A stretch of DNA of 64,000 bases from an uncultured delta proteobacterium. Its GTDB lineage: Bacteria > Myxococcota_A > Polyangia > Fen-1088. The translations under genes and the position numbers were made by a program. The stretch covers positions 384,001 through 448,000 of the forward strand of contig CAWCMR010000015.1 of assembly GCA_963796685.1 (NCBI GenBank). Direction: 5' to 3'. The notes beneath the pieces were generated by a model. The model was not told the DNA's origin and ran no database searches. It saw only the letters and a list, made by a program, of their open reading frames with translations. Shown here in pieces: positions 16,299 to 48,894 of this stretch (positions within the stretch are counted from its first letter, which is position 1; every line of letters begins with the position of its first letter).

Positions 16299-19175
16299 AT
16301 GAAGCACGAGCGGAGCGCCGAAGAACCCAATTTCGTCATCGTTCGCGGCGCGCGCGAGCACAACCTGCACATCGACGAGCTGTCGATCCCCAAGCGCCAG
16401 CTCGTCGTATTCACCGGGGTTTCGGGGTCGGGAAAGTCTTCGCTGGCCTTCGATACGCTGTATGCCGAAGGGCAGCGGCGCTACGTCGAGTCGCTGTCGT
16501 CCTACGCGCGGCAGTTCCTGGGCCAGCTCGAAAAGCCCAAGTACGACCAGATCCGCGGGCTTTCGCCCACCATCGCCATCGAGCAGAAGTCGGCGTCGTC
16601 GAACCCGCGCTCGACGGTTGGCACCGTGACCGAGATCTATGACTACCTGCGCGTGCTCTATGCGCGGGCGGGCGAGCAGCGTTGCCACTTGTGCGGCGGC
16701 GAGGTCGCGGCACGCTCGGCGGGCGAGATCGTCGGCGAGCTTTTGACCCTGCCGGCTAAGACCAAGGTGACCTTGCTGGCGCCCAAGGCGGACAACCGCA
16801 AGGGCGAGTTCTGCGAGATCTTCGACGAGGCTCGCAAGGCCGGCTTTGCGCGGGTGCGCATCGACGGGGTCGTGCGACGTCTCGACGAGGTCAGCGCGCT
16901 CGACAAGAAGAAGAAGCACTCGGTGCAGATCGTCGTGGATCGGGTGGCGCTCGACCACGCCGATCGCGCGCGCCTGTCCGATTCCATCGAGACCGCCCTG
17001 CGCGCCGGGGGCGGCACCTTGATAGCGGCGGTCGAAGGCGAGGAGCGCGAGCGCGCCTACAGCGAGGAGCGCGCCTGCCCGAGCTGCGGCGTGGGCCTGC
17101 CCGAGCTGTCGCCGCAGTCTTTTTCCTTCAACAGCCCGCTTGGCATGTGCGTGGACTGCAACGGCCTCGGTTCCAAGCTGGAGGTCGATCCGGATCTGGT
17201 GGTGCCCAACGGCGACCTGTCCATCTCCGAGGGCGCCATCGAGCCGTGGGGCGAACGCTTCGCGCGCGAAGAGGGCTGGACCACGCGCATCGCCGCGGCT
17301 CTCGAAAAGGAGATGGGCATTCCACTCAAGAAGCCGTGGAAACAGCTCACGCCACGCCAGCGCGAGATCGTTCTTTTCGGCACGGGTGAGCGCCGCGTGC
17401 AGGTGAGCTGGACGGGGAAGCACGGTGGCGGCTCGTGGGCTCTGCGCTTCGAGGGCGTGGCCAACAACATCAAGCGCCGCTGGCGCGACACGCACTCCGA
17501 GATGATGCGGCAGTGGCTGGGAAAGTACTTTCGCGAGCAGCTCTGCCGGGCGTGCAAGGGCAAGCGGCTGCGACCCGAATCGCGGGCGGTCTTTCTCGGC
17601 GGCAAGAGCATCGTCGACGTCACCGCCCAGACCGTGGGCGAGGCCGAGAAATACTTCAGCGAGCTTCCCCTGACCGGCTCGCGCGCGCAGATCGCGGCCG
17701 AGATTCTCAAGGAGGTGCGCACGCGCCTCGGCTTCCTGCTCAACGTCGGCCTCGACTACCTGACTCTCGATCGCGTGGCGTCGTCGCTTTCCGGCGGGGA
17801 GGCGCAGCGCATTCGTCTGGCCTCGCAGCTCGGCTCGGAGCTGTCAGGGGTGATGTACGTGCTCGACGAGCCGTCCATCGGTCTGCACCAGCGCGACAAC
17901 CTGCGCCTCATCGCGACCCTGCGCAGGCTGCGCGACCTCGGCAACAGCGTGATCGTCGTCGAGCACGATGCCGAAACCATCGAGTCGGCCGACCACGTGG
18001 TGGATTTCGGCCCAGGGGCCGGGCGGCAGGGTGGGCACGTGGTCGCGGCCGGCACGCCCAAGGAGATCGCGGCGAACAAAAGCTCCCTGACCGGGCGGTA
18101 CATGGCGGGCACCATGCGCATCGAGGTGCCTGCTTCGCGGCGCAAGCCCAAGGGGTTCATCACCCTGCGCGGGGCGCGCGAGCACAACCTGCGCAACCTC
18201 GACGTGGAGTTCCCGCTCGGCGTCCTGCTCGCCATCACCGGTGTTTCCGGGGCAGGCAAGTCGTCGCTCATCAACGGCATCCTGCACCCGGCCCTGCGGC
18301 GCAAGCTCTACGGCGGGATGGAGCAGGTCGGCGCGTACGGCAAGCTCGAAGGCATCGACCAGATCGACAAGGTCGTGGACATCGACCAGAAACCCATCGG
18401 CCGCACCCCGCGCTCGAACCCCGCGACCTACACCAAGTCCTTCGACCACATTCGCGAGCTCTACGCGGGCACCGCGGAGGCCAAGACCTTCGGCTTCGGT
18501 CCGGGACGATTTTCCTTCAATGTGAAGGGCGGGCGTTGCGAGGCCTGCGAGGGCGACGGGGTGAAGACCGTCGAGATGCACTTCCTGGCCGACGTGCACG
18601 TGACCTGCGAGGTGTGCCGCGGTCGGCGCTACAACGACGCCACCCTGCGTGTGAAGTGGAAGGGCCTGGACATCGCCGAGATGCTGGAAACCAGCGTGTC
18701 CGAGGCCCTCGCCCTGTTCGAGAACCATCGCCAGCTCTCGCACATCCTGCGCACCCTCGACGACGTGGGGTTGGGCTACATCGCCCTCGGCCAGTCGGCG
18801 ACCACGCTGTCCGGCGGCGAAGCCCAGCGCGTGAAGCTGTCGCGCGAGCTGGCCAAGCGCGACACCGGCCGCACGCTCTATCTTCTCGACGAGCCGACGA
18901 CGGGCCTGCACTTCGACGACGTTCGCCGCCTGCTCGCCGTCCTCGATCGTCTGGTCGCCGCCGGCAACAGCGTCCTCGTCATTGAGCACAACCTCGACGT
19001 GATCAAGACCGCCGACTACGTCATCGACCTCGGCCCCGAGGGCGGCGCCGCGGGTGGCGACATCATAGCCGCCGGCACCCCCGAGGAAGTCGCCGCCAAC
19101 CCGGGTTCCTACACCGGCCAGTTCCTGGCCGAGCTCCTGGGAAAGCGCTCCGCAGCCTCCCGTCGCGCCGGGTAG
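16299..19175 (+). CDS. uvrA: Excinuclease ABC subunit A
   Basis: GAREHNL, TGVSGSGKSSLAFDTLYAEGQRRY, two LSGGEAQR signatures and Zn-finger CxxC pairs. Confidence 0.98.
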   Translation: MKHERSAEEPNFVIVRGAREHNLHIDELSIPKRQLVVFTGVSGSGKSSLAFDTLYAEGQRRYVESLSSYARQFLGQLEKPKYDQIRGLSPTIAIEQKSASSNPRSTVGTVTEIYDYLRVLYARAGEQRCHLCGGEVAARSAGEIVGELLTLPAKTKVTLLAPKADNRKGEFCEIFDEARKAGFARVRIDGVVRRLDEVSALDKKKKHSVQIVVDRVALDHADRARLSDSIETALRAGGGTLIAAVEGEERERAYSEERACPSCGVGLPELSPQSFSFNSPLGMCVDCNGLGSKLEVDPDLVVPNGDLSISEGAIEPWGERFAREEGWTTRIAAALEKEMGIPLKKPWKQLTPRQREIVLFGTGERRVQVSWTGKHGGGSWALRFEGVANNIKRRWRDTHSEMMRQWLGKYFREQLCRACKGKRLRPESRAVFLGGKSIVDVTAQTVGEAEKYFSELPLTGSRAQIAAEILKEVRTRLGFLLNVGLDYLTLDRVASSLSGGEAQRIRLASQLGSELSGVMYVLDEPSIGLHQRDNLRLIATLRRLRDLGNSVIVVEHDAETIESADHVVDFGPGAGRQGGHVVAAGTPKEIAANKSSLTGRYMAGTMRIEVPASRRKPKGFITLRGAREHNLRNLDVEFPLGVLLAITGVSGAGKSSLINGILHPALRRKLYGGMEQVGAYGKLEGIDQIDKVVDIDQKPIGRTPRSNPATYTKSFDHIRELYAGTAEAKTFGFGPGRFSFNVKGGRCEACEGDGVKTVEMHFLADVHVTCEVCRGRRYNDATLRVKWKGLDIAEMLETSVSEALALFENHRQLSHILRTLDDVGLGYIALGQSATTLSGGEAQRVKLSRELAKRDTGRTLYLLDEPTTGLHFDDVRRLLAVLDRLVAAGNSVLVIEHNLDVIKTADYVIDLGPEGGAAGGDIIAAGTPEEVAANPGSYTGQFLAELLGKRSAASRRAG

Positions 19176-27092: not shown

Positions 27093-28919
27093 ATGGCGGA
27101 TCCCGTACGCACGCTCTTGCTCGAGATCGAGGAACAGTGTGAGCAAACACCCGGCTGCGAGCTGGCCAAGGCGCAGGGGGGCGAGTCTCGACTTGGCAAG
27201 TTGAGGACGCTCTTTTCTGGCGCAGTCTCCCCCGGATACGCAGCCTTCGCCGATCGCTACGACGGGGGAAAGCTGGCGCGCCCGAGCCCGGCGCTCGGCG
27301 AGCCTTCGCAGGAAGGCTCCTCGAAGGAGGCTTCCTGCGAATCCTCGGAACCATCGCCGGACGAAGGCGTGTACCTGCACCTCCTCGGATTCGAGGAGTC
27401 TCAGCGTATCTTGCGCGAGGCCGCACACCCTCAAGACTGGAAGGGGCTGTGGCCGGTGGCACGGCGTGGATTGCGTATCTTTGCGCTCGACTTCGAGGCC
27501 AGTCCCGACGGAGAGCAGCCGGTGGTGGAAGTGGGCGACCGCAGCGTGGACCGAGTGGGCAGCAGCTTTCTGCGCTTCCTATCGGCGTGCCTGGGAGAGA
27601 TCGCGCTCGGTGAAAACGCCGAAGCGCAAGTCCTGGCGCGCGAGCTGTGCCGCAGGGATCCCGGGCTGGCGGAACACTGGGTGCACCTCATCGACTTTCT
27701 CGAGGACGCCGGGCACAAGAGCGAGATCGACACGGTCCTCGACGAAGCCCTCCGCTGCGCCAGCCCGCCGGGGCCAGCCCTGGTCATCCAAGTAGCCTTG
27801 CGCGCCCTCGACAAGGGCGAGACCGGCCGAGCGCTGGCCGCCATCGAGGACGCGCTTGGGCTGGAGCCGCTCACGGCACGTGACGACGATGCTCGCTTGG
27901 ACGCAGCCGCGATCCTGCTGGTGCTGGCGAACCAACGTGGCGACAGCAAGGGCAAGCAGCGTGCCTTGGAGGCGCTGGGAGGCGCCGCCGCATCGACAGG
28001 GGCCTATTGGCGCGGCGAGGCCTTGCGCGCCCACGTCCTTGGCGATCTACCTCGGGCGAAGCTCGCGGGACAGGTTGTCGGGGTCCTGATCGAGGGTGAC
28101 GAGGATTTGCCACGTCTGGCGCAGCCCAATCCCAACCTTACGTCCGCCTTGCGTGCGCTGCTCAAGGCCCGCGATGCGCTGGAACAAGGCGAGCTCGACG
28201 AAGCCGTCCGCCAGGCCCGCATCGCGGTGGGCGAGCGGCCGGATCTCGGCGTATGCCAGGCGGTGCTCGCCGAAACCCTCAATGCTACGAGAGACCGCGG
28301 CGCGCTCGACGCCGCCCGGCGCGCAACCGAGCTGAACCCCGCGCTGGTCGACGGCTGGCGCGAGCTGGGCGATGCATACATGGAAGCACGCCAGGCCGGC
28401 AAGGCCGAGGCCGCTTATCGCGAGGCGCTGGCGCGCGACGAGAGCTATGCCCTGGCGCGGGCCAAGTTGGCGCAAGCGCTCCTCGAACAGGGGCGATCGC
28501 GCGAGGCCCTGGAGATGGCGCTGGCGGCGGAAGATCGGGGAGGGGATGCGTTCATGGTCGCCGCCATTCGCGGCGACATCCTGGCCGAAATGAGCCGCCA
28601 TGACGAAGCCGCGGAATCCTACGATCGGGCGTTGCACATGGAGCCGGAGGACCACTGGATTCTTCATCAGGCCGCCATCGCCCACAGCCGCGCCGGCAAC
28701 GACGACCGCGCCGCCGACCTATTCGAACAGGCGCTGCGCTACGACCACGATGGCTGCCACCAGACTCTCGTCGACTACGGCGATCTCTTGCGCCGGGTGG
28801 GCCGCATCGGCGACGCGGTCCGCATGTACCGCAAGGCCGTGGCCGCCGTGCCGAACGATCCTGACTGGCGGCGCGTGCTGCGCGAAGCCGAGCGCGAGCT
28901 CATGGCCGCGCCGAACTGA
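27093..28919 (+). CDS. SMI1/KNR4-like N-terminal domain plus TPR-repeat protein
   Basis: ATG at 27093. PGYAAFADRYDGG...FALDF...GEQPVVE...VGSSFLRFL resembles the SUKH fold; many TPRs follow. Confidence 0.7.
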   Translation: MADPVRTLLLEIEEQCEQTPGCELAKAQGGESRLGKLRTLFSGAVSPGYAAFADRYDGGKLARPSPALGEPSQEGSSKEASCESSEPSPDEGVYLHLLGFEESQRILREAAHPQDWKGLWPVARRGLRIFALDFEASPDGEQPVVEVGDRSVDRVGSSFLRFLSACLGEIALGENAEAQVLARELCRRDPGLAEHWVHLIDFLEDAGHKSEIDTVLDEALRCASPPGPALVIQVALRALDKGETGRALAAIEDALGLEPLTARDDDARLDAAAILLVLANQRGDSKGKQRALEALGGAAASTGAYWRGEALRAHVLGDLPRAKLAGQVVGVLIEGDEDLPRLAQPNPNLTSALRALLKARDALEQGELDEAVRQARIAVGERPDLGVCQAVLAETLNATRDRGALDAARRATELNPALVDGWRELGDAYMEARQAGKAEAAYREALARDESYALARAKLAQALLEQGRSREALEMALAAEDRGGDAFMVAAIRGDILAEMSRHDEAAESYDRALHMEPEDHWILHQAAIAHSRAGNDDRAADLFEQALRYDHDGCHQTLVDYGDLLRRVGRIGDAVRMYRKAVAAVPNDPDWRRVLREAERELMAAPN

Positions 28920-29063
28920 CACGGGTGTCTCTGGATCTTTCCAAACCCGCCGGGAACGTGCTATCCCTGTCTCCTTCCTGCCCGAATGCGTACACTACGA
29001 GAACCAGGCAGGAAGACACTGCAGTAGAACGACTAGCCTAAATCAGCGTCCGGTATACGTTTC

Positions 29064-29104
29064 GCGCGAGTAGCTCAGCTGGTAGAGCATCGGCTTCCCA
29101 AGCC
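29064..29104 (+). repeat. attL: 41-bp 5' half of tRNA-Gly(CCC)
   Basis: GCGCGAGTAGCTCAGCTGGTAGAGCATCGGCTTCCCAAGCC is identical to 41383-41423; the sequences diverge within the 3' strand of the anticodon stem. Confidence 0.95.
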
Positions 29105-29179
29105 TCGCAACGCTGCGCAGCGCTGACCAACGGTGAGCAGAGAACCGCAGGCACCAAGCGGACTTACAAGAGAATCACG

Positions 29180-29215
29180 ACCGGGTGCGTGCTCACGGGT
29201 GCGCACCCGGTTTTT
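29180..29215 (+). terminator. Intrinsic terminator downstream of attL
   Basis: ACCGGGTGCG-N12-CGCACCCGGT followed by a T-tract. Confidence 0.7.
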
Positions 29216-29272
29216 CATGAATGAGCACCCAAACGGCAACGAATGACGTCAAGGTGGTGACACGAGGGCCGC

Positions 29273-29758
29273 CTACTTGGAGGCGTCCCTAATTGGCTCG
29301 TCGACGACGATGAGCGAGCACTCTGCTTTTCCGCAGACGTTCGCCAGGTCGCCGCCGGCGAACTGAAACGCGATCTGGACATTGGAGGCATAGGGCGCCA
29401 ACTCCTGGCAAGCCGCGAGCGACGCGGCCGACTTCTGTGTTTCGCGATTCAAGGCGTTCGCGTGGATACAGATCACCCCACCGCGGTGGGAGGCGTTGGT
29501 AAGCCAGACGTGGCCTGTGGCCGTGGTGCGGTTGAGGGAGCTCATGAAGGGCCCGACTGACTCAATGGAAATCACGGCCGGGTTCTTGGGTCTCAGGGCC
29601 TCTTCCAACTTCGCTTGAGTCTGGCGCAACGACTCATGCAGGCCGGCGTCCTCGCGGCGCTGATTTGCGTACGACAGGGGTACGCCAACGAGGAGCAACG
29701 AAATCGAAAACCACAGAACAAGCCTTCCCAGTTTCTCGAGACGATCGATCCACGGCAT
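29273..29758 (-). CDS. Hypothetical membrane-anchored protein (element cargo)
   Basis: GGAGG RBS, N-terminal TM, short coiled coil and four Cys in the C-terminal domain. Confidence 0.7.
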   Translation of the reverse strand: MPWIDRLEKLGRLVLWFSISLLLVGVPLSYANQRREDAGLHESLRQTQAKLEEALRPKNPAVISIESVGPFMSSLNRTTATGHVWLTNASHRGGVICIHANALNRETQKSAASLAACQELAPYASNVQIAFQFAGGDLANVCGKAECSLIVVDEPIRDASK

Positions 29759-29884
29759 CTTGAGGGGCCTCCCTTCGGAGAGGGTAAGCGCGGCCTACAG
29801 ATGAAACCCGCGTTTGGTCGCTCACGATTGTCGACCCAGTTCTTCACCGTGTCAAACGGGTCCCTTCTGCCTCAAGCGCAGCGA

Positions 29885-30448
29885 CTACTGCGTCCCGGAT
29901 TTTAGGCTCCGCCGTTCGACGTCGCGGCTCAGCGGTGGTAGCTGGACTGCTTTCCTGATCACGTCGCCAGCCTGGTAGATCTTGTCCCAATAGCCCGAAA
30001 GGTCCCTGCCCGTACTGCGAAGCTCTCTGACGGAGGCCGCCGCGTGTAGAGCCTCGCGGAAGGCGCTCCCGGCCTCTTCCGAGAGATAGAGACAGTGCTT
30101 GTCCCACCAGGTATCGCACCGCTGGATGAAAACGAACCCGTCATCTTTTGTGGCCTCGCTCGAGAGCTGCCGCCAAAGGAAATACGCCGTCTGGTGCGCC
30201 TGAAGGCGCCTGTCCAGCGCGGCCATGCTGAGCTGGTGACGTCTCTGCACAGCCTCTCGGATCAAGGTCTTCTCGTGTATCAGCGTGTGGAGATTTTCAG
30301 CGTACTCTGCGCGAACCTCCTCGACCTTGCGGGTGATCTCGGCGGTGTCCTCCTTGGTCGCGAGATTCTCGCCCTTCTTCCTGAGATACGACCTGAAGTA
30401 GAGAGCGGCGAGAACAACAACGATCGTCAAGATGTAGTTGGCTACCAT
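29885..30448 (-). CDS. Hypothetical single-TM protein with YLRKKGENLATKED motif (element cargo)
   Basis: N-terminal TM followed by SYLRKKGENLATKEDTAEITRKVEEV, a motif I recall from uncharacterised mobile-element proteins. Confidence 0.75.
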   Translation of the reverse strand: MVANYILTIVVVLAALYFRSYLRKKGENLATKEDTAEITRKVEEVRAEYAENLHTLIHEKTLIREAVQRRHQLSMAALDRRLQAHQTAYFLWRQLSSEATKDDGFVFIQRCDTWWDKHCLYLSEEAGSAFREALHAAASVRELRSTGRDLSGYWDKIYQAGDVIRKAVQLPPLSRDVERRSLKSGTQ

Positions 30449-30602
30449 TGCGAAAGATTCTCTCCCCGGCCGACAAGACCGTCAAACGCGGCGCGAACCG
30501 CAATAGGCTCGCGCCCGAGGCCGGGGCGCGAGAGCTTGGCTGTTCTGGCTCTGGCACTCCGCGGGGTGCGCGAACGGGGGCCCGCAGGCCCGAAAGCGGC
30601 AT

Positions 30603-31184
30603 CTAGGCGCAGTCGCGCATCTCGCCTCTCTGAAGCATGGTTTTCTTCATCGCGGCCAGGTTGGGGAGCGCGAGCCCCTGCGGCCGTTTCGTGGGAGGCT
30701 GGTGTCTCACTGCTTTGAAGACGGTTCCGAGTATCTCGCGCATCTGGTCTGGTTTGATGAGATCCGCCTCTACCAGCGAGCCCAGCGCGAACCCTCGGAG
30801 CATGTAATCGTACTCGGGTGAAATGTCTCGATCCCCTCGCTCCCAATCGGCCAGCGTCACGCGGTTTATTCCCATGTTGTGCGCTAGCTCTTCTTGGGTG
30901 GCATGCAGGCTGCGCCGGAGGTAACGCACTTCCGCACCGCCCAGGCGCCTCGGCTGCTTGGCGACCTGCGTGATCGTGTAGTTCATGACCATGTTCAGCA
31001 CAGCGCCGTCGATCGTTTCGCCTCCACACTTGGTGCACTTGAAGCCGTCGATGTCGCTGACCGTGACCTTCAGGCCGACGTAGTCCGAGAAATCGTAGAC
31101 ATCGAAATGCGCAGGGCGAAGCTCGCCCCCACAGTCGCAGATGATGACTCGGCTCGTTGCAGGCTTCTGTGGCTCGTTTTTCAT
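30603..31184 (-). CDS. MqsA/YgiT-like antitoxin (Zn finger + XRE HTH)
   Basis: CDCGG...CTKCGGE Zn finger and TQEELAHNMGINRVTLADWERG HTH. ATGA coupling to the upstream toxin. Confidence 0.85.
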   Translation of the reverse strand: MKNEPQKPATSRVIICDCGGELRPAHFDVYDFSDYVGLKVTVSDIDGFKCTKCGGETIDGAVLNMVMNYTITQVAKQPRRLGGAEVRYLRRSLHATQEELAHNMGINRVTLADWERGDRDISPEYDYMLRGFALGSLVEADLIKPDQMREILGTVFKAVRHQPPTKRPQGLALPNLAAMKKTMLQRGEMRDCA

Positions 31185-31507
31185 GGCATGTCCTTCGGTG
31201 GTAGCACCGTGCAAAGCATGAGTCTCTCTTCGCCTTCGGCGCCCTCAAAAGCTTCGATGCCGACGGCGATCTCTTTGTCTCCGTCGACGTTCCGCCCAAA
31301 GAAACGCCAACAGGTGCCACCGTTCTGCGGCATCGCGGCGTATGGCTCGACCCTCCGTGACCTGCCGATGACCGCGTCGACGTCGTTCGCTGTCACGCCA
31401 CGCTCGCGCAACCGCTGTCTGAAGTGGCCAGACATGTGGTACCGCCCATTTTCGATCGCTTCACGAACCCATCTCTTTGCATCAGCCACCTTCTCTGGGC
31501 CTGGCAT
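31181..31507 (-). CDS. DUF4258 (RelE/MqsR-like fold) putative toxin
   Basis: GRYHMSGHFRQRLRERGVTANDVDAVI matches the DUF4258 pattern (H..xRM.ER.I); it lies upstream of the Zn-finger/HTH antitoxin. Confidence 0.8.
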   Translation of the reverse strand: MPGPEKVADAKRWVREAIENGRYHMSGHFRQRLRERGVTANDVDAVIGRSRRVEPYAAMPQNGGTCWRFFGRNVDGDKEIAVGIEAFEGAEGEERLMLCTVLPPKDMP

Positions 31508-31549
31508 TGTTTGTAGTTTAAGACTACAACAATCCCCTCGCACCGTCAA
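31507..31549 (-). promoter_or_regulatory. Sigma-70 promoter and palindromic operator of the TA operon
   Basis: Minus strand TTGACG-N17-TAGTCT-N13-ATG; inverted repeat TTGTAGT-N5-ACTACAA (31511-31529) overlaps the -10. Confidence 0.8.
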
Positions 31550-31833
31550 ACCTCGGTCTCGTAGGCCGGATCTCTACCCGCCCATTCTCCGACGGAGAAC
31601 ACCACGCGCCCCGCAAGCAGAGCCGCCAAGGCGCCGCCAAGGTACCGTCGACAACGCGCTTGACTCCGCCCCCTCTGGCCGCATCATGAAATCAGGGCAA
31701 GCGAGTCGGTTGATCCCCGGCGCGCGGGCCGTCCGGTGTCCGGCGGCCCTGCCCCAGCTTCTCCCAGGACACGGCCAAGGACACCATGCGAGCGGAAAAG
31801 ACGCAGGCAAAGCCAGCGGGCGCAGGCGAGACG

Positions 31834-32493
31834 ATGGGACGACCTCGCACGAGGCGAGATGCCACCCAAGGCCGGAAGCCATGGCCACGCGGCGGGAAGT
31901 GGACCAGCGCGGACCTCACAGCGGCGTGCTGTCAGTTGCTGGAAGATTCCCTGCGCGTTTGCTTCGCCGACATTGAAGCCACGGCCTTGGAGCGGTTGCA
32001 GACGTGGGATCAAGAGGGGCGGCAGTCTACGGCCGTGCGCGATTGCGCGCGCGAGATTGAAGCCGCCCTGTCGAGGGCCGAGGGGCTGGTCGAAAAGCAT
32101 CCACATTGCCCCCTGGCCCCCATCGTGCAAGCGTTCGCGGGCACACGCAAGGCCACGAAAACCGAGCTTGACCGACTTGCTTGGAGGCCCCAACGTGAAC
32201 GCGCAAAGCCTCTTACTCGGGCCGTGGAAGCCCTCGACCGAACGCACTTCTTGGGAGTCGTGGATCGCCCGGCAACCGACCAAGAGTTTGCAGCGCTCCT
32301 CTTTTGCCTTGGCATGCTGAGTGCCGAGCAGGCGCAACTGAAAAGCCCAATGCGAGCCGTGCTCAAGCAAGCCACCGACGCCATTGCCAAGAGCCGCCGA
32401 GAGAACGGCCGCCCGGCGATCATCGATCGGTGGCGAGCGAACCGCCCTGCTTTGCCGGCCCACGCTCGTGTTCTGAAGCGCCGGTATCTGTAG
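31834..32493 (+). CDS. Hypothetical protein (element)
   Basis: Long ORF, start at 31786 or 31834, N-terminal GRPR motif, no recognisable family. Confidence 0.6.
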   Translation: MGRPRTRRDATQGRKPWPRGGKWTSADLTAACCQLLEDSLRVCFADIEATALERLQTWDQEGRQSTAVRDCAREIEAALSRAEGLVEKHPHCPLAPIVQAFAGTRKATKTELDRLAWRPQRERAKPLTRAVEALDRTHFLGVVDRPATDQEFAALLFCLGMLSAEQAQLKSPMRAVLKQATDAIAKSRRENGRPAIIDRWRANRPALPAHARVLKRRYL

Positions 32494-32575
32494 CAGGGGC
32501 GAGACCGCGCGATTAGGGTACCTGCCTAACCGCGCCTTTCTCGTGGTGCCGCGCCGTCGCAATGTAGACGGCGAC

Positions 32576-32788
32576 ATGCAGACATCATCCGTCACCCTCG
32601 ACACCAGCGAGATCCAGGCGATACAGCGCCTGCGCGCCACGGTCGGCATGCGCGAGACCGCCCGCCGGCTAGGTATCGGCCATGACACGGCCTATCGGGC
32701 CGTCGCTGGCCGGAATCTATACAGGGGTACAGTCACGCAGATCCGGCTGGGCCTCGCGCTCGTCAGCGACCAGGAGCCACGATCGTGA
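32576..32788 (+). CDS. Small HTH DNA-binding protein
   Basis: GMRETARRLGIGHDTAYRAVAG HTH; translationally coupled to the next gene. Confidence 0.7.
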   Translation: MQTSSVTLDTSEIQAIQRLRATVGMRETARRLGIGHDTAYRAVAGRNLYRGTVTQIRLGLALVSDQEPRS

Positions 32789-33075
32789 CCGCCGCCGACC
32801 TTGCCACCGCGCGTGACGTCGCCGCCGTGCTGGCCGAAATTCGCGAGTTGCGCGCCGAACTGGCCGAGCTGCGCCGGTCGCAGCCGCCGAGGCTGGTCTC
32901 GGTGGCCGTCGCTTCGGCCCAGCTGGGCATTAGCCCGTGCAGCGTGCGTCGCCACGTCGCCGACGGCACACTGCCCTCGCGCCGCATCGGCGGGCGCGTG
33001 TTGGTGGATTTGTCCGCGGCCCAACCAGCGGCCGACGCCGAGATCGCGCAACGAGCGAGGGAGGCGAGAGCATGA
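32785..33075 (+). CDS. Excisionase-like HTH protein
   Basis: LVSVAVASAQLGISPCSVRRHVADGTLPSRRIGGRVLV, an HTH_17/Xis pattern, after a short coiled coil. Confidence 0.8.
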   Translation: MTAADLATARDVAAVLAEIRELRAELAELRRSQPPRLVSVAVASAQLGISPCSVRRHVADGTLPSRRIGGRVLVDLSAAQPAADAEIAQRAREARA

Positions 33076-33178
33076 CCCGCCCGACTAGACAGACCGACGC
33101 GCTACGCACCAACTCCCGTCGAGGAACTGGCGACGCCGCGACTACCCGGACGTCGCAGCGCCGCCAAGGTGCGCAGCC

Positions 33179-35617
33179 ATGACGACGGTAGCCCGCACCC
33201 GCGATCCCGAAGCCGACGCGCGAGAGGCCGCCACCAAGGCGCGAGCGCTGCTCGGCGCGAGCCGATCGGCGAGCCCCGATGATCCCTACATCACGCGCAA
33301 GCAGATCGCTCCTGATGGACTGCTCGAGATCGATCTCGCAGTTGCTGTGCGGATCATCGGCTACGCGCCCAAGGGCGGCAAGCATCACAAAACACTAGCC
33401 GGCCCCTCAATCATCGTCGCGCCCATCCTGGTCGACGCGAACATATCGACCGTCGAGTTCATCGACGCCGCAGGCACGAAGTCGTTCCTCGCTGGCGGCA
33501 CCATGGCGGCGGGTTTCTGGGCGCCTCGCCCCCTGCCCGACTGCGACTGGGCCGGAGACATGACAATCCTAGTCGGTGAAGGCTGCGCGACGGTCGCATC
33601 GGCCGCGATGGCCTGCCCGAACAGCTACGCCGTTGCGGCCATGAGCGCCGGTAACTTGCTCGCTGTCGGCAAGATGTTGCGCGAGCGATATCCTGACGCC
33701 CGAATCGTGTACCTCGGAGATGTCGGCATCGGCGCGCACAAGTGCATGGAGGCCGCGCGCGCGACCGGCGGGTTTGTTGCAGTACCACCGATCGACGAGG
33801 ACGGCGCGGATTGGAATGATGTGCACGTCCGCGCTGGTCTGCTTGCCGTGGCCGCGGGTATGGATACCGCCCAGCAGCCGGCGGCGGAACCAGTCGAGGC
33901 GGAGGTGGTCGCCCCCGGCGCGGCTCGCACCGCTCGCTGCTACGCCCTGACCGAGACGGGCGGCGCAGAACTTCTGGCCGACAGGCTGGCCGGCGATTGG
34001 CGATACTGCCAGGACCGTGGCCAGTGGGTGCGGTGGACGGGGCAGGTTTGGACCTTCGACCCTGGCGACGTGGCGATCACTGAGCGGAGTAAGCTGGTGG
34101 CACAGGAGTTTCTTGCCGAGGCCCAATGGGCACTGAAAGCTGACGATGCGCGCGCGAAGGTCTTCGCCCAATTCGCAGCGACGGCACAGCGGCGGCAGTT
34201 CCGGCGGGCCGTGATCGACTTGGCCAAGTCCGAACCAGGGATCTTGATTCCGTTCTCGGAATTCGACTGCGACGCCTACTTGCTCAACGCTGCGAATGGA
34301 ACTGTCGATCTTCACACCGGGAAACTGCGGCCCCACTCGCGAGAGGACAAGATCACGCGCATCCTGCCTTGGTCCTACGACCCGGACGCGACTTGCCCGC
34401 GCTGGGAAAGGTTCCTGGGCGAGATCCTGCCAGATGCAGAAACCGTCGAGTTTGTCCGGCGGGCGATTGGGTACACCCTGACGGCCGACGTGAGCGAGCA
34501 CGTTCTCTTCTCGTGTTTCGGCGCGGGAGCAAACGGCAAAAGCGTCCTGCTCAACACGCTGTTGCACGTTTTCGGCCCATACGGCACGACCGCCCCCACG
34601 TCGATGCTGGTAGCGAAGCAACACGAGTCTCACCCCACCGAAAAGATGGTGCTCGTCGGCAAGCGGTTGGTTGTCTTCCAGGAAATCCCATCCGGCCAGC
34701 GCTTGAACGAAGGCTTGACGAAGGCCCTAGTGAGCGGAGATCCGGACCAGGCCCGCGCCATGCGCGAAAACTTCACAACGATCCGTCCCGTCGGAAAGCT
34801 GTGGCTCGCTGGCAACCATCGCCTGGACATCCGCGAACAGACGGAAGCGATCTGGCGGCGCTATCGGGAAATCCCATTCGAGCAAGTGTTCTCGCAGGAG
34901 CAACGCGATCCCAAGCTCGAAACGAAGCTGCGCGAAGAAGCCACCGGCGCGCTCGCGTGGTGTGTCCGGGGGTGCCTCGAATGGCAGCGCGCCGGCTTGG
35001 GTAAGTCGGGCAAGGTGCAGGCGGCGACCGCTGACTTGCGCGCAGAAATGGATCGCCTCGGCCCGTTCCTTGAGGAGTGCTGCATCGTCTCGCCGTCCGC
35101 CACGGTCCCGCGGGCGGCACTCTTTCAAGCGTATCGATTGTGGGCCGAACGGCAAGGTTCGCACGGAATCTCTGACAAGGCGTTCACCGAGCTGGTGCGC
35201 GGAAGAGGATTCACGCCAGCCTACGGCCGTGTCAACGGAAAGACGGCCCGCGTTTGGCATGGCCTCGGACTGATCGATGGCGTTCCACCCTCGCCACACC
35301 TGCCACAGATTCCGAAAGAATCTCCCTATTGCGGCCAGAATCAATCTCTACGTGAGGGATATAGGGAAGAAGTATCGGAAAGCGTGGCAAGCGTGGCGCC
35401 CGACCCACTGGCCCAACTTGCCCACTGCCTCCGGGTGAGACCCGACACCACGGCCACGGATCCCGACCGTGAGGCCCTGGCCGAGCACTTCCGCGGCCTG
35501 AACGGTACGGCAGAGGCTGCGGGACAACGTCTTTGGGCGTACTGGAAGGCGGCGCCCTCCCCGACCGTGAGCGAATTCCTGGCCAAGGAACCGAAAGCAA
35601 AATGCGGTGCAGCGTGA
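33179..35617 (+). CDS. Toprim primase fused to D5/P4-family SF3 helicase
   Basis: VGEGCAT and DWND (Toprim); LLNAANGTVDL, CPRWERFL, Walker A GAGANGKS, LVSGD, GNH and AIWRR (D5/P4 primase). Confidence 0.92.
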   Translation: MTTVARTRDPEADAREAATKARALLGASRSASPDDPYITRKQIAPDGLLEIDLAVAVRIIGYAPKGGKHHKTLAGPSIIVAPILVDANISTVEFIDAAGTKSFLAGGTMAAGFWAPRPLPDCDWAGDMTILVGEGCATVASAAMACPNSYAVAAMSAGNLLAVGKMLRERYPDARIVYLGDVGIGAHKCMEAARATGGFVAVPPIDEDGADWNDVHVRAGLLAVAAGMDTAQQPAAEPVEAEVVAPGAARTARCYALTETGGAELLADRLAGDWRYCQDRGQWVRWTGQVWTFDPGDVAITERSKLVAQEFLAEAQWALKADDARAKVFAQFAATAQRRQFRRAVIDLAKSEPGILIPFSEFDCDAYLLNAANGTVDLHTGKLRPHSREDKITRILPWSYDPDATCPRWERFLGEILPDAETVEFVRRAIGYTLTADVSEHVLFSCFGAGANGKSVLLNTLLHVFGPYGTTAPTSMLVAKQHESHPTEKMVLVGKRLVVFQEIPSGQRLNEGLTKALVSGDPDQARAMRENFTTIRPVGKLWLAGNHRLDIREQTEAIWRRYREIPFEQVFSQEQRDPKLETKLREEATGALAWCVRGCLEWQRAGLGKSGKVQAATADLRAEMDRLGPFLEECCIVSPSATVPRAALFQAYRLWAERQGSHGISDKAFTELVRGRGFTPAYGRVNGKTARVWHGLGLIDGVPPSPHLPQIPKESPYCGQNQSLREGYREEVSESVASVAPDPLAQLAHCLRVRPDTTATDPDREALAEHFRGLNGTAEAAGQRLWAYWKAAPSPTVSEFLAKEPKAKCGAA
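35292..35398. other. Candidate replication origin: long imperfect palindrome in the primase 3' end
   Basis: GCCAC x2 (35293, 35302) against GTGGC x2 (35384, 35393); TTCCGA/TCGGAA; TCCCTAT/ATAGGGA; AT-richer core. Confidence 0.6.
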
Positions 35618-35909
35618 CCGGGTTGTCAATCTGTCACACGCCGGAGTCTGGCGGCGCTTCGGTGTCAGGCCGGCGGTGCCAACCCTCGCTCACCGACGGT
35701 GCGAGCCCCGAAAGAGCATTGAACAGTGGATCCGACCACCACACAGATTTTCGATTTCGCAACGCGGACGAGGGCTTGGCGGTAGCACCAACCCGTCGCG
35801 CGTTTTTGCATGGCGCCCCATCGACGAGAAGGGCTTCGTCTCCCTCGTGCTCGCGGTGGTCGCTCGGAGCCGCGTTGCGAACTTTTTCTCCCGAACGAAA
35901 GGACCTGTG

Positions 35910-36185
35910 ATGCCTGAATCATGTTGCGGCCGGGACCATTGCGACGCGTGCGGCAGCACTTCGTTCACCTCGGCGACGTTCAAGGGCGGCCGGGTCATCT
36001 GTGCGGCCTGCTGGCGCGAAATTTCGCGGAGCAAGGGTGAGGTACCACGAAAGCCGCCGCCAGCGCTTCCCCCGGCCCAAGCCGCGCAGCCACGGGCTAC
36101 GCACTCGAGCATCCCGGAACCAGAGCGGTGGGGCGACCACGTGCAAGCCGACCTCGGAGTGCTGGACAGGGGAACCAATGATTGA
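35910..36185 (+). CDS. Small Zn-finger hypothetical protein
   Basis: GAAAGGA RBS, CDACG...CAACW, overlap with the next start. Confidence 0.55.
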   Translation: MPESCCGRDHCDACGSTSFTSATFKGGRVICAACWREISRSKGEVPRKPPPALPPAQAAQPRATHSSIPEPERWGDHVQADLGVLDRGTND

Positions 36186-36636
36186 CGAGAAACCGCCCCT
36201 GACCGTGGTGCCCGACGTGGCCGAAAATGGCCCCGCCCCGGACTCCGAGGAAGAACAAGGGGACGCGCTGGACTCGCGCGAACTTAGGTTCGCCGACCTT
36301 GTGGCGTCAGGTTCCACGCTGGGCGACGCGGCCACCGAGATCGGGATCGGTTACCGGACGGCTCGGCGATGGAAAAAGCGGCCCGCGATTGCCTCGGCGA
36401 TCAAAGATCGAGCGAGCGAGCAAGTAGCCCTTGGCCGAGCGGTTCTCGCGGCGGGCATGGGCAGGGCATCGCACGCGCTGGTGCAGATGGCCGACGGCAC
36501 GGCGCCTGCGTCGGCACCACGGGTTAGCGCCGCCCGCGCGGTGGTCGAGGTAACGGCGAAGCTGGTCGAGCTCGAAGGCGTGAACGAAAGACTCGCCGAG
36601 CTTGAATCCCGCCTTTTGCCGACGAGGAGAAACTGA
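36178..36636 (+). CDS. HTH protein, terminase-small-subunit-like
   Basis: TLGDAATEIGIGYRTARRWKK HTH, RVSAARAVVE helix and C-terminal ERLAELE coiled coil. Confidence 0.65.
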   Translation: MIDEKPPLTVVPDVAENGPAPDSEEEQGDALDSRELRFADLVASGSTLGDAATEIGIGYRTARRWKKRPAIASAIKDRASEQVALGRAVLAAGMGRASHALVQMADGTAPASAPRVSAARAVVEVTAKLVELEGVNERLAELESRLLPTRRN

Positions 36637-36637
36637 C

Positions 36638-36955
36638 ATGCCGAAATCAATTGGCGACCTGCTTTCCCGGCTGGCCCGACTCGAAGGCCGCTCCGCTGCG
36701 CAGTCCTCGACGGGCGGGATTCCACGAGGGAGCACCACGGACGAATTGAAGCGCATGCTCGCCGCCGAGTTGACCGCGGAGCCGGATTTGATCGGCGAGC
36801 TGGCCGAGTCGCTGGACGTTCGCGCGATTTGCACGCTGAGAATCTTCGCCCGCTCAATCGGCCTTGCGGAATTCCTGCCCGCGCCGTCGCCCGAGGTGGT
36901 CGCAGAATTGCGCAACACCTACGGCATTGTCGAACCGAGCGAGGCCGCGCAATGA
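36638..36955 (+). CDS. Hypothetical protein (element)
   Basis: GAGGAG RBS, LLSRLARLE N-terminus, ATGA coupling to the next ORF. Confidence 0.65.
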   Translation: MPKSIGDLLSRLARLEGRSAAQSSTGGIPRGSTTDELKRMLAAELTAEPDLIGELAESLDVRAICTLRIFARSIGLAEFLPAPSPEVVAELRNTYGIVEPSEAAQ

Positions 36956-37380
36956 ACCCGCAAACCACAGCGCTCGAAAGCGATCTTCGCGGTGACACCG
37001 CCTTAGCGATCATGGCCATGCTCTCGTGGGCAGAGGCGCATGGTGGAACGAAGATGCTACTCGACGGCTCCGTGTCGAGGTGGCTCACCAGCGGCAAACC
37101 CGACGATCCGTAGATTGCACGCTGCCTGGTGAAGCTGCACAGCCAGCTTGCCCGCTTTCTCGCCCGCGGTGGCCACGTGCCCCAGTGGTTCCCGGCGTCG
37201 CTACTCAAAGCCCTTGGCGAGCCGTGCTGCGCGCGCGACTTGGCGCCCTCTTCGGCTACCTTGTCCGATGCTCTTCCTGACCGATCACCGTCGGAGAACA
37301 CGCCAAGCACGACCGGCCAGCGGCACCACAGCGCCCCCAAGATTGCCGAAACACGAACCGAAACCGACAACCAGCAGTGA
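36952..37380 (+). pseudogene. Hypothetical gene interrupted by in-frame TAG at 37111-37113
   Basis: ORFs 36952..37113 and 37129..37380 share one frame, separated only by a TAG and five sense codons. Confidence 0.5.
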
Positions 37381-37400
37381 CCCGAAAGGAAATCCCGCAC

Positions 37401-37817
37401 ATGAACCCATCGCACATGATCCAGACGCACGAGTCCCAAGCCGCCCTCAACAAGTCGTTCGACAAGCTCCGAGAATTGGCCTTCATCGATTACACGAAGC
37501 TGGCCACCATCAACGACGCAATCGACGCCGAGATGCACAAGCTGAAACAGCAGTATGCGAACACGGACACGCCCGAAGGCGCCGCACAAGTGAACCTTCG
37601 CCGCACAATCGCCAAAAACAGCGCGGGCGCTTTCTCGCAACTGCCCGATTCTGGTCTTGACGTCGTCGCGTTGAAAAGGGAGCGCGACCACCAGACGTGC
37701 GTCACCATCCCGAAGGATCAACTGATGATCTTGAGGATCCTGCATGGGCAGGATGAAGGGAAGATTGCGCACGCGTACCGCGAGACGCAGCGACTCGTCA
37801 AAGAAGGCAAGCTGTGA
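37401..37817 (+). CDS. Hypothetical helical protein (element)
   Basis: GAAAGGA RBS before ATG at 37401; GTGA coupling to the next gene. Confidence 0.7.
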   Translation: MNPSHMIQTHESQAALNKSFDKLRELAFIDYTKLATINDAIDAEMHKLKQQYANTDTPEGAAQVNLRRTIAKNSAGAFSQLPDSGLDVVALKRERDHQTCVTIPKDQLMILRILHGQDEGKIAHAYRETQRLVKEGKL

Positions 37818-38437
37818 GCAAGACATTCGCGTTCCACCGCGCGCCCTTCAATGATTCAGAATTCAACGAGGGCATTGCAGAGCTGGCCAAGCTCATTGGC
37901 GCGACTGAGGCGGCCACGCCGAGCTGGACAAGACGCCTTGTGCTCGCTGCCGACAAGGCCAGCGATCCCGAGGAGTGGGCGCTCATGATCGACAACTGCG
38001 CGAAGCCCGATTCGATTCTGCCGGGCCTGGCGGTTTGGGTAAACACAGGTTTGCTGGTGGCGCTGCCGACGGCGTTTTCCCTCGCCGATGCCGTGGCCAT
38101 CCTGACCGGCCACGACTCGGCCAACCCTGAGGCGATACTTCGCGAGCGTCGCGCGCAGATGAAGGAGCACGAGAATGAGGTAGCCGCCGAGCTGGCAGCG
38201 AAGACGGCGGAACAGGAGAAAGAGCGGGAGGCGGCCGAACAGGAGGCGCGGGACCGACTCACCTTCAACGCCAGCGGCTGGGAGGAATTGGAACCATGGC
38301 AACAGATGCTCTACGCGCTGTCGATGCGGGTGCAGGCGCGAGACGGCGAGTTTGCCAGCGACTTGCGCGACATCGCCGAAGAAAGCCAGCGGTGTCGCCC
38401 GGCGGCGCTGCCCTTCCCGCGGCAAAGGTGGCGGTGA
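37814..38437 (+). CDS. Hypothetical coiled-coil protein (element)
   Basis: 207-aa ORF with GC-biased third positions and a central E/K/A-rich coiled coil. Confidence 0.7.
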   Translation: MSKTFAFHRAPFNDSEFNEGIAELAKLIGATEAATPSWTRRLVLAADKASDPEEWALMIDNCAKPDSILPGLAVWVNTGLLVALPTAFSLADAVAILTGHDSANPEAILRERRAQMKEHENEVAAELAAKTAEQEKEREAAEQEARDRLTFNASGWEELEPWQQMLYALSMRVQARDGEFASDLRDIAEESQRCRPAALPFPRQRWR

Positions 38438-38494
38438 CCAATGATGCGCAAGAGCAGCGCGTCCCTACCCGAACCGCAGCGAGCACACGCGCAC

Positions 38495-38908
38495 CTACCG
38501 TCCATCGTTGTTGTTCATCTTGGAAGCCATCGCGCGAACGTCACACGCGATGTCCACAAAAAGATTGATCGCTTCCGCAACAGCCTTCAGTACCAGCCAC
38601 TGGACCGCTGCGCCCACAAAGCAAGCGAGAGCCTTGTACAGCGCGATGGACATCGTTTGATCGGTGGAGTTAGCCAGAATGTTAACTCCAACCAGAACCA
38701 ACACCACAAGGATGACCCAAGCTGCGATTCTATAGAATGTTGAGATGCTTTCCAACGCCGCATATCGCGGCCTTGCTTGCCCACCCATCGAATGCTCGCC
38801 GGGTCGGTCCACCGACTTCGGAACATACGCCCCTGTGGCGAAGGAGTACCCGCAGTCGCACGTCGTGGTTGAAGGCGGATTTTCGAGGTGGCATCTGGGG
38901 CATTGCAT
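38495..38908 (-). CDS. Zinc-ribbon membrane protein (element cargo)
   Basis: AGGAGG RBS, CPRC...CDCGY, two TM helices. Confidence 0.75.
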   Translation of the reverse strand: MQCPRCHLENPPSTTTCDCGYSFATGAYVPKSVDRPGEHSMGGQARPRYAALESISTFYRIAAWVILVVLVLVGVNILANSTDQTMSIALYKALACFVGAAVQWLVLKAVAEAINLFVDIACDVRAMASKMNNNDGR

Positions 38909-39070
38909 GGCTTCCTCCTCCTGAAAGCTTCCATCTTATCAAGTGGCGGTGCTCTATCCAACGCTCTACGACCGCCGTCACCGACGGAGAACGACCAGAA
39001 GGGCGCGATGCTTCGTTTTATTGTTCGCACGGAGGGGCTGAAAAGGACGGTCTGGGTGGGGCAAGCCGAT

Positions 39071-39107
39071 TGTATTTGACTTAATATCTACGATGTGGAT
39101 AAATACA
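39071..39107 (+). promoter_or_regulatory. Promoter and palindromic operator upstream of the RHH gene
   Basis: TTGACT (39076-39081) with TAAATA about 18 bp downstream; nested inverted repeats TGTATTT/AAATACA and TATCTAC-GAT-GTGGATA. Confidence 0.65.
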
Positions 39108-39110
39108 GGC

Positions 39111-39368
39111 ATGCAAGTCATGGAAAACTCGCAACGAAACAGGAAACCTGCAAAAGTGGTCGCTGATTTGGGCCGGCCAAGAACACGACCACCTGGCGAA
39201 AACACCGTCTTGTCTTTCAAGGCGACGGACGAATTCATCGCCACGCTGGACAAGGCGGCCGAGGAACTGACACGCGAACGTCCGCCTGGTAGCTCGAAAG
39301 TGTCCAGGACCGAGACGATCAAGATCCTGCTGACTGAAGCCCTGGCCGCTCGCTCGAAGCGTCAGTAG
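39111..39368 (+). CDS. Ribbon-helix-helix (CopG/Arc-like) regulator
   Basis: TVLSFKATDEFIATLDKAA...SRTETIKILLTEAL strand-helix-helix pattern, preceded by GRPR. Confidence 0.75.
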   Translation: MQVMENSQRNRKPAKVVADLGRPRTRPPGENTVLSFKATDEFIATLDKAAEELTRERPPGSSKVSRTETIKILLTEALAARSKRQ

Positions 39369-39475
39369 CCCGCGCCGTAGCTGCGCGCCACCTCTACCCC
39401 CCGCAACGAAAGTGGGGCGCCACCACGCGAATGGTGCGCCCCGTGGTCGAGAACCCCGACGAAGGAGATACCGAC

Positions 39476-39859
39476 ATGCGAACCGTACCACGCCCGAAGA
39501 GAACCGCGCCACGTGAACGAGTAGCGACCCAAGCCGAGATCGCCGACGCCACCCGCCGATGCCGGGAGGCCCGAGAGCAACACCGCGTGCTCGCGCCCGC
39601 GCCTGAACCGCAACAGGCCAACTTGTGCGGCGCCCTGGTGCTCCTTGCCCGCTGGCGCCGTTGTTCCATCTGCGGCAGCGAAAGCCTGTTCACCGATGAG
39701 CGTGGCCGTGCTGACAGTGACGTTGAATGCGGGCTGTGTGTCCAGGTTCGCGAAGACCTGGCCAAGCGCCTTCGCTTCGTGAAGCTGTCCGAGAGGGTGC
39801 GCTTCCACCTGGGAGCACTCTGCAGCACCGGCAACGACAACGGCGGGGCGGTGGCATGA
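39476..39859 (+). CDS. Hypothetical Zn-binding protein (element)
   Basis: AAGGAG RBS, CSIC...CGLC, ATGA coupling. Confidence 0.65.
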   Translation: MRTVPRPKRTAPRERVATQAEIADATRRCREAREQHRVLAPAPEPQQANLCGALVLLARWRRCSICGSESLFTDERGRADSDVECGLCVQVREDLAKRLRFVKLSERVRFHLGALCSTGNDNGGAVA

Positions 39860-40068
39860 GGTTCCGCCGGCAGAACCGCGAAGCCGTCCGCACGGTGAGC
39901 CTTCGCCTGCGCAAGAAGCTGACAGCGATCGACGATGCGACAAGCGACGCCGACGATCTGCTGTCCGAGCTTGAAGAAGCGGCCGGGCTTGTTCGTGACG
40001 ACGGTTCACGCATCGATGAAGCGAAGGGCGGCCAAGCTCGTCTGAGGAAGGGAGGGCGGCAACCATGA
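39856..40068 (+). CDS. Small hypothetical protein coupled to the integrase
   Basis: ATGA overlaps at both ends. Confidence 0.6.
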   Translation: MRFRRQNREAVRTVSLRLRKKLTAIDDATSDADDLLSELEEAAGLVRDDGSRIDEAKGGQARLRKGGRQP

Positions 40069-41369: not shown

Positions 41370-41382
41370 AATTCTTCCGTTT

Positions 41383-41455
41383 GCGCGAGTAGCTCAGCTG
41401 GTAGAGCATCGGCTTCCCAAGCCGAGGGTCGCGGGTCCGAGCCCCGTCTCGCGCT
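41383..41455 (+). tRNA. tRNA-Gly(CCC), reconstituted at attR
   Basis: GCGCGAG/CTCGCGC acceptor, discriminator T and anticodon arm TCGGC-TTCCCAA-GCCGA. The T-loop reads TCCGAGC (C at 41437). Confidence 0.9.
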
Positions 41456-41521
41456 CTCGCGATCTGCGTTGGGCATGTGGCCATCCGCCTCCGGTGCCAC
41501 CCAGGTGGTGCGTCGTCATCA

Positions 41522-41575: not shown

Positions 41576-41638
41576 GGACGTCATGACCCTGGAAATTTTT
41601 CGCGACGGTGGGGCTTCGGCCGACCAGACTCTGCCCCG

Positions 41639-48883: not shown

Positions 48884-48894
48884 GGGGAGACCCA

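Follow-up and report, generated by a model that had tools for sequence, protein, structure and literature searches.

We identified an integrative element of about 12.3 kb inserted in reversed orientation at a tRNA-Gly(CCC) gene, in the 64-kb stretch of genomic DNA from a soil myxobacterium that was analysed here (the window). The 5' half of the tRNA gene is duplicated, and the complete tRNA lies directly past the stop codon of the integrase gene. We consider it likely that this reflects reversed-orientation integration at a target used repeatedly, and that the tRNA is now transcribed from a promoter-like box within the coding tail of the integrase gene.

Direct repeat and tRNA genes

A single tRNA-Gly(CCC) gene was identified by ARAGORN at 41383-41456 on the forward strand, where it scores 65.3 bits against the Rfam tRNA model; between 28500 and 42000, Rfam searches returned no further RNA family match. 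A repeat finder placed the two copies of a direct repeat at 29061-29104 and 41380-41423 (43 of 44 positions identical). Within the repeat, 29064-29104 (forward strand) is an exact copy of 41383-41423 and corresponds to nt 1-41 of the tRNA. These nucleotides take in the acceptor arm, the D arm and, from the anticodon arm, the 5' strand, the loop and three bases of the 3' strand. The copies diverge from nt 42. The left repeat thus comprises tRNA nt 1-41 only, as an earlier note on this DNA had described it, and because its match to the tRNA breaks off from nt 42 onward, attP has no 3' half of the gene and carries the 5' half, also as proposed there. Neither ARAGORN nor Rfam calls a tRNA at 29064-29104, which we regard as the displaced 5' half of tRNA-Gly(CCC) and the attL core. 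The corresponding nucleotides of the complete gene (41383-41423) form the attR core and were probably supplied by the element. The window contains no 3' tRNA fragment to the right of tRNA-Gly(CCC), the mark of a standard island on that side.

The stop codon of the integrase gene ends at 41369, 13 bp ahead of the tRNA, in agreement with the earlier note. Its observation of a short sequence shared by the regions before both tRNA copies also holds: ACTAGCCTAA has only two exact occurrences in the window (at 29032 and 41352; 0.00 expected from 100 shuffles), and these are placed 32 and 31 bp, respectively, before the tRNA start.

Rfam identifies 46 tRNAs in the assembly (7.3 Mb in 26 contigs, 88.6% complete, 6.5% estimated contamination). 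A count of tRNA-Gly genes, suggested in the note, gave one each for CCC, UCC and GCC, with 41383-41456 as the sole tRNA-Gly(CCC). A 90-nt 'Gly(ccc)' call made by ARAGORN on contig C5 was considered as a second tRNA-Gly(CCC) and rejected, as it is absent from the Rfam tRNA set.

Gene content and ends of the element

The element body (29105-41382) is bounded by the direct repeat and flanked by a gene for a TPR protein on the left (stop at 28919) and a gene for an MFS transporter on the right. Its G+C content falls to 0.57-0.63 in parts. The integrase is a tyrosine recombinase of 434 amino acids (40065-41369, forward strand; PF00589, E 3.9e-15, 56.5 bits against a cut-off of 27.1; phrog_1 integrase, E 1.6e-47) with the sequence ..H-S-S...Y-S-H-L.. 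near its C-terminus. We also identified a primase-helicase (33179-35617, forward strand) with Toprim, D5_N, DUF5906 and Pox_D5 regions (PF08706, E 3.5e-34; phrog_6088 DNA primase, E 2e-109). Upstream of it is a gene resembling an excisionase or recombination directionality factor (32785-33075, forward strand; PF12728 HTH_17 at E 3.3e-5, under its cut-off; phrog_66 and phrog_7506 at E 8e-5 to 2e-4). A repressor-like helix-turn-helix gene on the reverse strand (30603-31214) has coding-like GC3 and weak PHROG matches to transcriptional repressors or regulators (best annotated E 1.9e-4). Several further ORFs have no matches, and 10 of 15 ORFs lack a PHROG match. Pfam-type and PHROG profile searches of 29105-41382 found no virion or structural genes. 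The likely genes from 32543 to 41369 all point towards tRNA-Gly(CCC). The element thus has a tyrosine recombinase domain, direct repeats formed by a tRNA fragment and a full tRNA gene with the integrase adjacent, and a site that is unoccupied in relatives.

Just inside the left end, a strong hairpin with a T run (29180-29215, forward strand) was identified in a terminator scan. It resembles an intrinsic terminator, forms a 15-bp stem in RNA folding, faces the displaced half-tRNA and would halt transcripts from the old left promoter. From the integrase stop codon to the tRNA, scanning gave no terminator-like site. An 18-bp repeat, CGGCAACGWWTGACGTCA, has only two matches in the window, both on the forward strand (0.01 expected). 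One, at 29234-29251, is a candidate arm-type integrase site on the P' side of attP, and the other, at 41310-41327 inside the integrase tail, is a candidate for the P side. Arm-type sites flank the core in the circular form, and the two copies of the 18-bp repeat would likewise lie on both arms. The last ~35 codons of the integrase gene may double as the P arm of attP. The hairpin and both 18-bp copies are kept in a related element in another genome of the genus (G009, see below).

The ACTAGCCTAA motif before the tRNA (41352-41361, forward strand) is conserved at the DNA level in members of the integrase family despite different reading frames. More generally, A/T-rich sequence makes up the last ~35 nt ahead of the tRNA in the window (41330-41382) and at family loci, with ..TAGCCTAA.. 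or ..GTAAGTA.. followed by ..TGAAAT..; these motifs, too, are conserved as DNA across targets and reading frames.

In three soil DNA sequencing runs with patchy cover, no contig provided a joint across the element. Loose contig ends at 41382 match the upstream region of the type found in the closest relative (G002), and such contigs, which join this upstream region to the tRNA, probably derive from another strain. A phage database yielded no close relative of the integrase (32 records at E<=1e-10, all with less than 60% identity), and a search for related loci gave only four.

Other repeats were noted in the window. The MFS gene (41587-42791) has a second copy on contig C22 (185609-187206; 94%/90% identical), and its orthologs in G001, G002 and G012 are unlinked to tRNA-Gly(CCC). 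A large duplication including this gene was considered and rejected, since only the MFS gene itself has a 94% paralog on C22. The region 48886-49119 holds a dispersed repeat of ~200 bp that is found at least 18 times, at 81-89% identity, across eight of the genome's contigs.

Relatives and a second tRNA target

The G009 genome, from the same genus, encodes an integrase 87% identical to that of the window, with its stop codon 13 bp before tRNA-Gly(CCC) and a 41-nt 5' half of the tRNA 13.7 kb upstream. The two elements have a common left end, primase gene and integrase gene and are homologous at both ends, and the block of identity in G009 likewise ends at nt 41. At nt 16, G009 has T in the stranded fragment, as in eight relatives, and C in the rebuilt gene; thus, the 5' part of the working tRNA came from the element. 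The window copies are identical, and it is the G009 locus and tRNA-Arg(CCT) that show this origin.

The tRNA-Arg(CCT) case is on contig C13 of the window's own genome. There, an integrase 57% identical to that of the window ends 14 nt before the tRNA, and a 39-nt repeat of the tRNA 5' half lies 10.5 kb upstream. The two copies differ at nt 27 (G27 vs. A27), which confines the exchange to nt 28-38, nucleotides that in the anticodon arm make up its 5' strand and its loop. The earlier note called for comparison with an element-free relative, and G011 provides one: its TPR gene is followed by 99 bp and a complete forward-strand tRNA in the same orientation, with no element. From the G009, tRNA-Arg(CCT) and G011 comparisons, it follows that tRNA-Gly(CCC) is a host gene and that attP contains only its 5' part.

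In the closest relative, G002 (TPR gene 94% identical), the interval from the TPR gene to the tRNA is likewise free of an element, and the tRNA is inverted, which implies rearrangements in the history of the locus. The tRNA-Gly(CCC) and TPR genes are convergent in G002 (locus L045, G002:C21, 9948-10734) and in G001, G004 and G007 (L046, L047 and L048), and co-oriented in the window and G011; inversion mediated by an integrase is one conceivable cause of the difference. G002 joins the tRNA-Gly(CCC) locus to a region found on C13 of the window's genome, beside tRNA-Leu(TAA); the breakpoints of these rearrangements therefore sit at tRNA genes.

The 3' side of tRNA-Gly(CCC) is used as well in some relatives, where 3' fragments were found 2.6-4 kb from the gene or elsewhere. 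These are 21 nt long in G001 and G007 (L046 6066-6086, with the gene at 8732-8805; L048 8276-8296, with the gene at 12298-12371) and 43 nt in G012 (L054 9515-9557). The gene is thus a two-sided hot spot.

Additional repeats occur in these genomes. Head-to-tail arrays of a ~80-bp unit, 79-93% alike between arrays, were found in L045 (G002:C21) at 18836-19008 and in the window's genome (G000) at C25:2111409-2112050, C25:1799235-1799632, C5:113875-114290 and C15:358143-358635. Both in this genome and in relatives, a palindromic GGGAACCCTCCCAGGGTTCCC-type element lies beside several tRNA genes (e.g., L045 at about 10022-10114 on the reverse strand, and upstream of tRNA-Trp at G000 C8:20045-20115).

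Survey of the integrase family

We surveyed 51 loci encoding relatives of the window integrase, from 81 genomes of the bacterial family. A tRNA gene lies within 400 nt past the integrase stop at 37 of these loci; 14 lack one, and a contig end is at or near 6 of the 14. At 33 of the 51 loci the tRNA is on the same strand as the integrase gene, with the stop located from 10 nt inside the tRNA to 34 nt before nt 1. The remaining four have a convergent tRNA, the usual 3' arrangement. Targets at the 33 same-strand loci are tRNAs for Gly, Arg (five anticodons), Val, Thr, Lys, Asn, Ser and Leu. In four members targeting tRNA-Val and tRNA-Lys, the integrase ORF overlaps the first 10 nt of the tRNA. 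Extending the search to 201 genomes of the class yielded four more loci, from three other bacterial families; at each of them the tRNA is on the same strand, 98-107 nt past the point where the protein match ends (measured from the match, not the stop codon).

In total, 37 of 41 tRNA-adjacent integrases of the family (33 plus the 4 added) are of the 5' type, and the reversed, 5'-side arrangement is the rule for the family. On the question in the earlier note of whether this clade always duplicates 5' halves, the surveyed orientations indicate that the 5' type is dominant but not universal, given the four convergent loci. A quick maximum-likelihood tree of 39 near-full-length proteins, which includes one very long branch, requires at least two changes of orientation to account for its three 3'-type rows. 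In this tree, one 3'-type pair is sister to a 5'-type integrase that uses the same tRNA-Leu(TAA).

Remnant of an older integrase

The 111 bp at 28931-29041 (forward strand), to the left of the half-copy, are what is left of an older integrase gene, its last 36 codons and TAA. Their translation aligns from end to end with the extreme C-terminus of the family integrase L068 (residues 363-399 of 399; 46% identity, E 7e-8) and, more weakly, with residues 400-415 of the window integrase (E 0.002). No integrase body lies upstream of the remnant, and the TPR stop at 28919 is 11 bp earlier. Homologous in-frame tails without an integrase precede tRNA-Gly(CCC) in G001 and G005, and at tRNA-Arg(TCT) of the window's genome an integrase-less remnant reaches back almost to the catalytic Tyr, into the region that directly follows it. 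Integrase-tail-like sequence with a GTGGTATC box, and no integrase gene, was observed before this tRNA-Arg(TCT) (G000 C22:174684-174757) and before tRNA-Arg(TCG) (C25:1655621-1655694).

The remnant holds a -35-like CTTTCC (28937-28942), GTGC and TATCCC (28958-28967), and ACTAGCCTAA (29032-29041). The last of these contains the stop codon of the old tail (..L-A-stop) and lies in another frame in the present integrase gene; its presence before both copies therefore reflects earlier integration by a related element. The note had offered mimicry of the upstream region or an older integration as reasons for the shared sequence, and it is the older integration that the tail remnant supports. The note's assumption that the left copy retains a native promoter was not borne out: the alignments indicate that the putative left promoter is itself element-derived, and 9 of 11 outgroup genes have a promoter of another, TTGAC type (judged by eye).

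Promoter-like sequence in the integrase tail

The coding tail of the window integrase contains a promoter-like box (41269-41298, forward strand), with the -35-like TTGGCG at 41269-41274, a spacing of 18 nt, and TG-n-TATCAA at 41290-41298. The protein motif encoded here, V-D-L-x-x-P-x-G-x-V-V-S-L, is general in the integrase family. In the subclade that includes the window integrase, it is written with the codons GAC CTT .. and GTG GTA TCN, which give a -35-like CTTKCC or TTGGCG and, 17-19 nt later, TG-n-TATCNN. Two of these codons are rare in the examined genes (CTT, 216 of 1871 Leu codons; GTA, 79 of 1105 Val codons). By hand count, and among members that are kin, the GTG-GTA/CTA pair occupies this site in 21 of 33 5'-type integrases (12 lack it) and in one of four of the 3' type.

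We identified the box in 13 of 14 regions upstream of tRNA-Gly(CCC) copies in 12 related genomes of the genus, with or without an integrase gene. The distance from the -10 to the tRNA is 84-99 nt at seven sites and 9-22 nt at six integrase-less sites that lack the leader. In the outgroup, a TTGAC-type -35 and a TAnnnT-type -10 stand beside 9 of 11 tRNA-Gly(CCC) genes (by eye), and the other two have sequence that looks tail-like. The -10 hexamers of the box lack T at position 6, and a strict sigma-70 consensus scan found no promoter-like sites in 40900-41600 or 28700-29400. A search for RNA sequencing runs that contain 39000-42000 gave none.

Because the box is kept after loss of the integrase and is placed at promoter distance, we infer that it drives tRNA-Gly(CCC). 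Alternatively, it could be a protein-binding site of attP, or be conserved by shared descent.

Proposed mechanism and alternative explanations

We propose that the ~12.3-kb integrase/primase element entered the only tRNA-Gly(CCC) gene of the host via a tyrosine-recombinase crossover within its anticodon stem-loop. The target orientation would have been reversed, with an attP made up of tRNA nt 1-41 and their upstream region directly past the integrase stop codon. The old 5' half of the host would thus be stranded at the far end of the element, with the terminator behind it, and tRNA-Gly(CCC) would be rebuilt from the 5' part of the element and the 3' part of the host. Cut off from its former upstream region, the rebuilt gene must be transcribed from element DNA, a deduction of the earlier note that the repeat geometry supports. 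Transcription would most likely begin at the -35/extended -10-like box about 80 nt upstream, in the integrase tail, and RNase P would trim the leader. Additional read-through from the co-oriented excisionase, primase and integrase genes is possible. The target would have been used before, leaving the tail of a previous integrase of the same family to the left of the stranded half, and this tail may have been kept because it supplies a tRNA promoter once the element is gone. Coupling of host tRNA supply to the element, as the note suggested, is plausible, and once the element is excised, the tRNA would again be expressed from the left promoter.

The note had placed the source of the tRNA transcript either in a promoter at the 3' end of int or in read-through from int. 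The comparative data point to the former, and read-through belongs to an alternative that we consider possible though rather unlikely. This alternative accepts the geometry and has the tRNA transcribed only by read-through of the forward-strand operon (32543-41369) or from the last ~40 bp (ACTAGCCTAA / TGAAAT), with the tail box as a binding site of attP for the integrase or a host factor. It draws on the co-orientation of the likely genes with the tRNA and the lack of a terminator-like site between the integrase gene and the tRNA. The A/T-rich pair (..TAGCCTAA.. then ..TGAAAT..), which many family members carry 12-35 nt ahead of the tRNA regardless of reading frame, would suit a proximal promoter, and the candidate arm site in the tail would suit a binding role for the box. 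Yet sites without an integrase retain the box, and where six of them have lost the ACTAGCCTAA leader the box stands close to the tRNA, where a promoter belongs. Position 2 of TGAAAT, moreover, is not the A that is conserved in -10 hexamers, and integrase operons are usually repressed in the integrated state.

It is improbable, in our view, that the likeness of the two upstream regions arose by mimicry, i.e., that the element captured the promoter region of the host tRNA-Gly and that the left copy is the true native promoter. Sites with and without an integrase share the box, and similarity alone gives no direction. The amino acid motif that underlies the box, however, also occurs (in other codons) in the tails of 3'-type members and in members with other tRNA targets. 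Moreover, the integrase-less regions are still in-frame tails that end at a stop codon, the tRNA-Arg(TCT) remnant reaches back to the stretch right after the catalytic Tyr, and 9 of 11 outgroup tRNA-Gly(CCC) genes have a different, canonical promoter. Far less credible still is that the complete tRNA is cargo of the element or that the repeat is an artefact of assembly or duplication; of these, the earlier note had named cargo and an assembly join as fatal to its proposal. The tRNA does directly adjoin the integrase gene, and the assembly is in 26 contigs with some estimated contamination. Relatives have tRNA-Gly(CCC) without the element, though, the gene is the only one of its kind in the assembly, and the divergence of the left copy at nt 42 leaves attP without a 3' half, all of which argue against cargo. 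The repeat is not an assembly join, as it lies on a 468-kb contig and the same geometry occurs in another genome (G009) and at a second tRNA, tRNA-Arg(CCT). Reversed integration followed by transcription from the tail box is the explanation that we consider likely.

Comparison with known systems

Zhao and Williams reportedly described, in 2002 (J Bacteriol 184:859), a single integrative element with reversed target-gene orientation, and Julien is said to have placed the attB of phage Mx9 in the 5' region of a tRNA-Gly in 2003. In the former, as in the window element, the 5' rather than the 3' part of the tRNA is replaced, and the element must supply the upstream region. That was one element, whereas the 5' type dominates the integrase family considered here. 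Mx9 (OQ709411) also has a myxobacterial host, and it carries the 5' half of tRNA-Gly(CCC), with an 88% match to tRNA nt 7-40. The similarity stops within the 3' strand of the anticodon stem, just as it does in the window element. The tRNA piece of Mx9 is antisense within the integrase ORF, whereas that of the window element is co-oriented and 13 bp past the stop. The Mx9 integrase is 34% identical to the window integrase over 74 of 434 residues (E 2e-6), and no Myxococcus phage is among the 32 phage records matched at E<=1e-10. Mx9 is a 53.5-kb phage (PMC10281127), in contrast to the window element, which lacks structural genes.

For the myxobacterial integrase IntP of Mx8, PMC6070905 describes an attP inside int and integration that alters the C-terminus of Int, so that there, as here, the 3' coding region of the integrase overlaps attP functions. 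In both Mx8 and Mx9 the core is inside the integrase ORF, whereas the core of the window element starts 13 bp past the stop, and integration therefore leaves the integrase protein unchanged. In PMC6563490, published in 2019, 5'-distal tRNA recombination is called 'considerably less frequent' than 3'-distal recombination, with Zhao & Williams 2002 and archaeal cases cited. The archaeal 5'-distal elements, as presented there, have the same reversed orientation and differ in domain of life and in integrase families.

Like P4-like and PICI-like satellites, the window element is small and has an integrase, a candidate excisionase-like gene and a primase-helicase in the absence of capsid genes. Within this set the integrase and primase-helicase are clearly identified, and the excisionase-like and repressor-like matches are weak. 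The described satellites of these types use the 3' side of tRNAs, according to PMC10111431.

The 5'-side principle and even the tRNA-Gly(CCC) target are thus precedented in myxobacteria. The earlier note overstated the novelty of integration at a 5' half, given that reversed orientation is in print and that the Mx9 attP has the same 5' half of tRNA-Gly(CCC). A limited search of the reachable literature found no description of the co-oriented layout abutting the stop codon, the dominance of this layout in a family, or the tail promoter and its retention, and we do not claim that the tail promoter is absent from print. The window element belongs to a known, rare kind, with a plausible and testable extension that concerns promoter replacement.

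Implications

Integration at the 3' side of a tRNA gene leaves host transcription untouched, and in the mirror-image mode a host tRNA comes under the control of the element. A broader reading, which we advance tentatively and give slightly less than an even chance, is that a mirror-image myxobacterial integrase family targets at least ten tRNA species at their 5' halves and writes a replacement tRNA promoter into rare codons of its tail. Hosts would keep the tail after the element decays, and tRNA-Gly(CCC) in genomes of the genus (12 of 13 looked at), probably together with tRNA-Arg(TCT) and tRNA-Arg(TCG) of the window's genome, would depend on an integrase-derived promoter. The dyad symmetry of the anticodon stem would have been exploited in at least two flips of orientation within the family.

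At tRNA-Leu(TAA), the family contains related integrases that act on one tRNA from opposite sides; such natural pairs lend themselves to studies of how orientation is determined in tyrosine recombination. If the tail promoter is real, it would be relevant to island-mapping software and integrase bioprospecting, which usually expect 3' fragments. It would also represent a compact overlap of protein-coding, attP-arm and promoter information, and a route by which mobile elements may permanently replace the promoters of their hosts.
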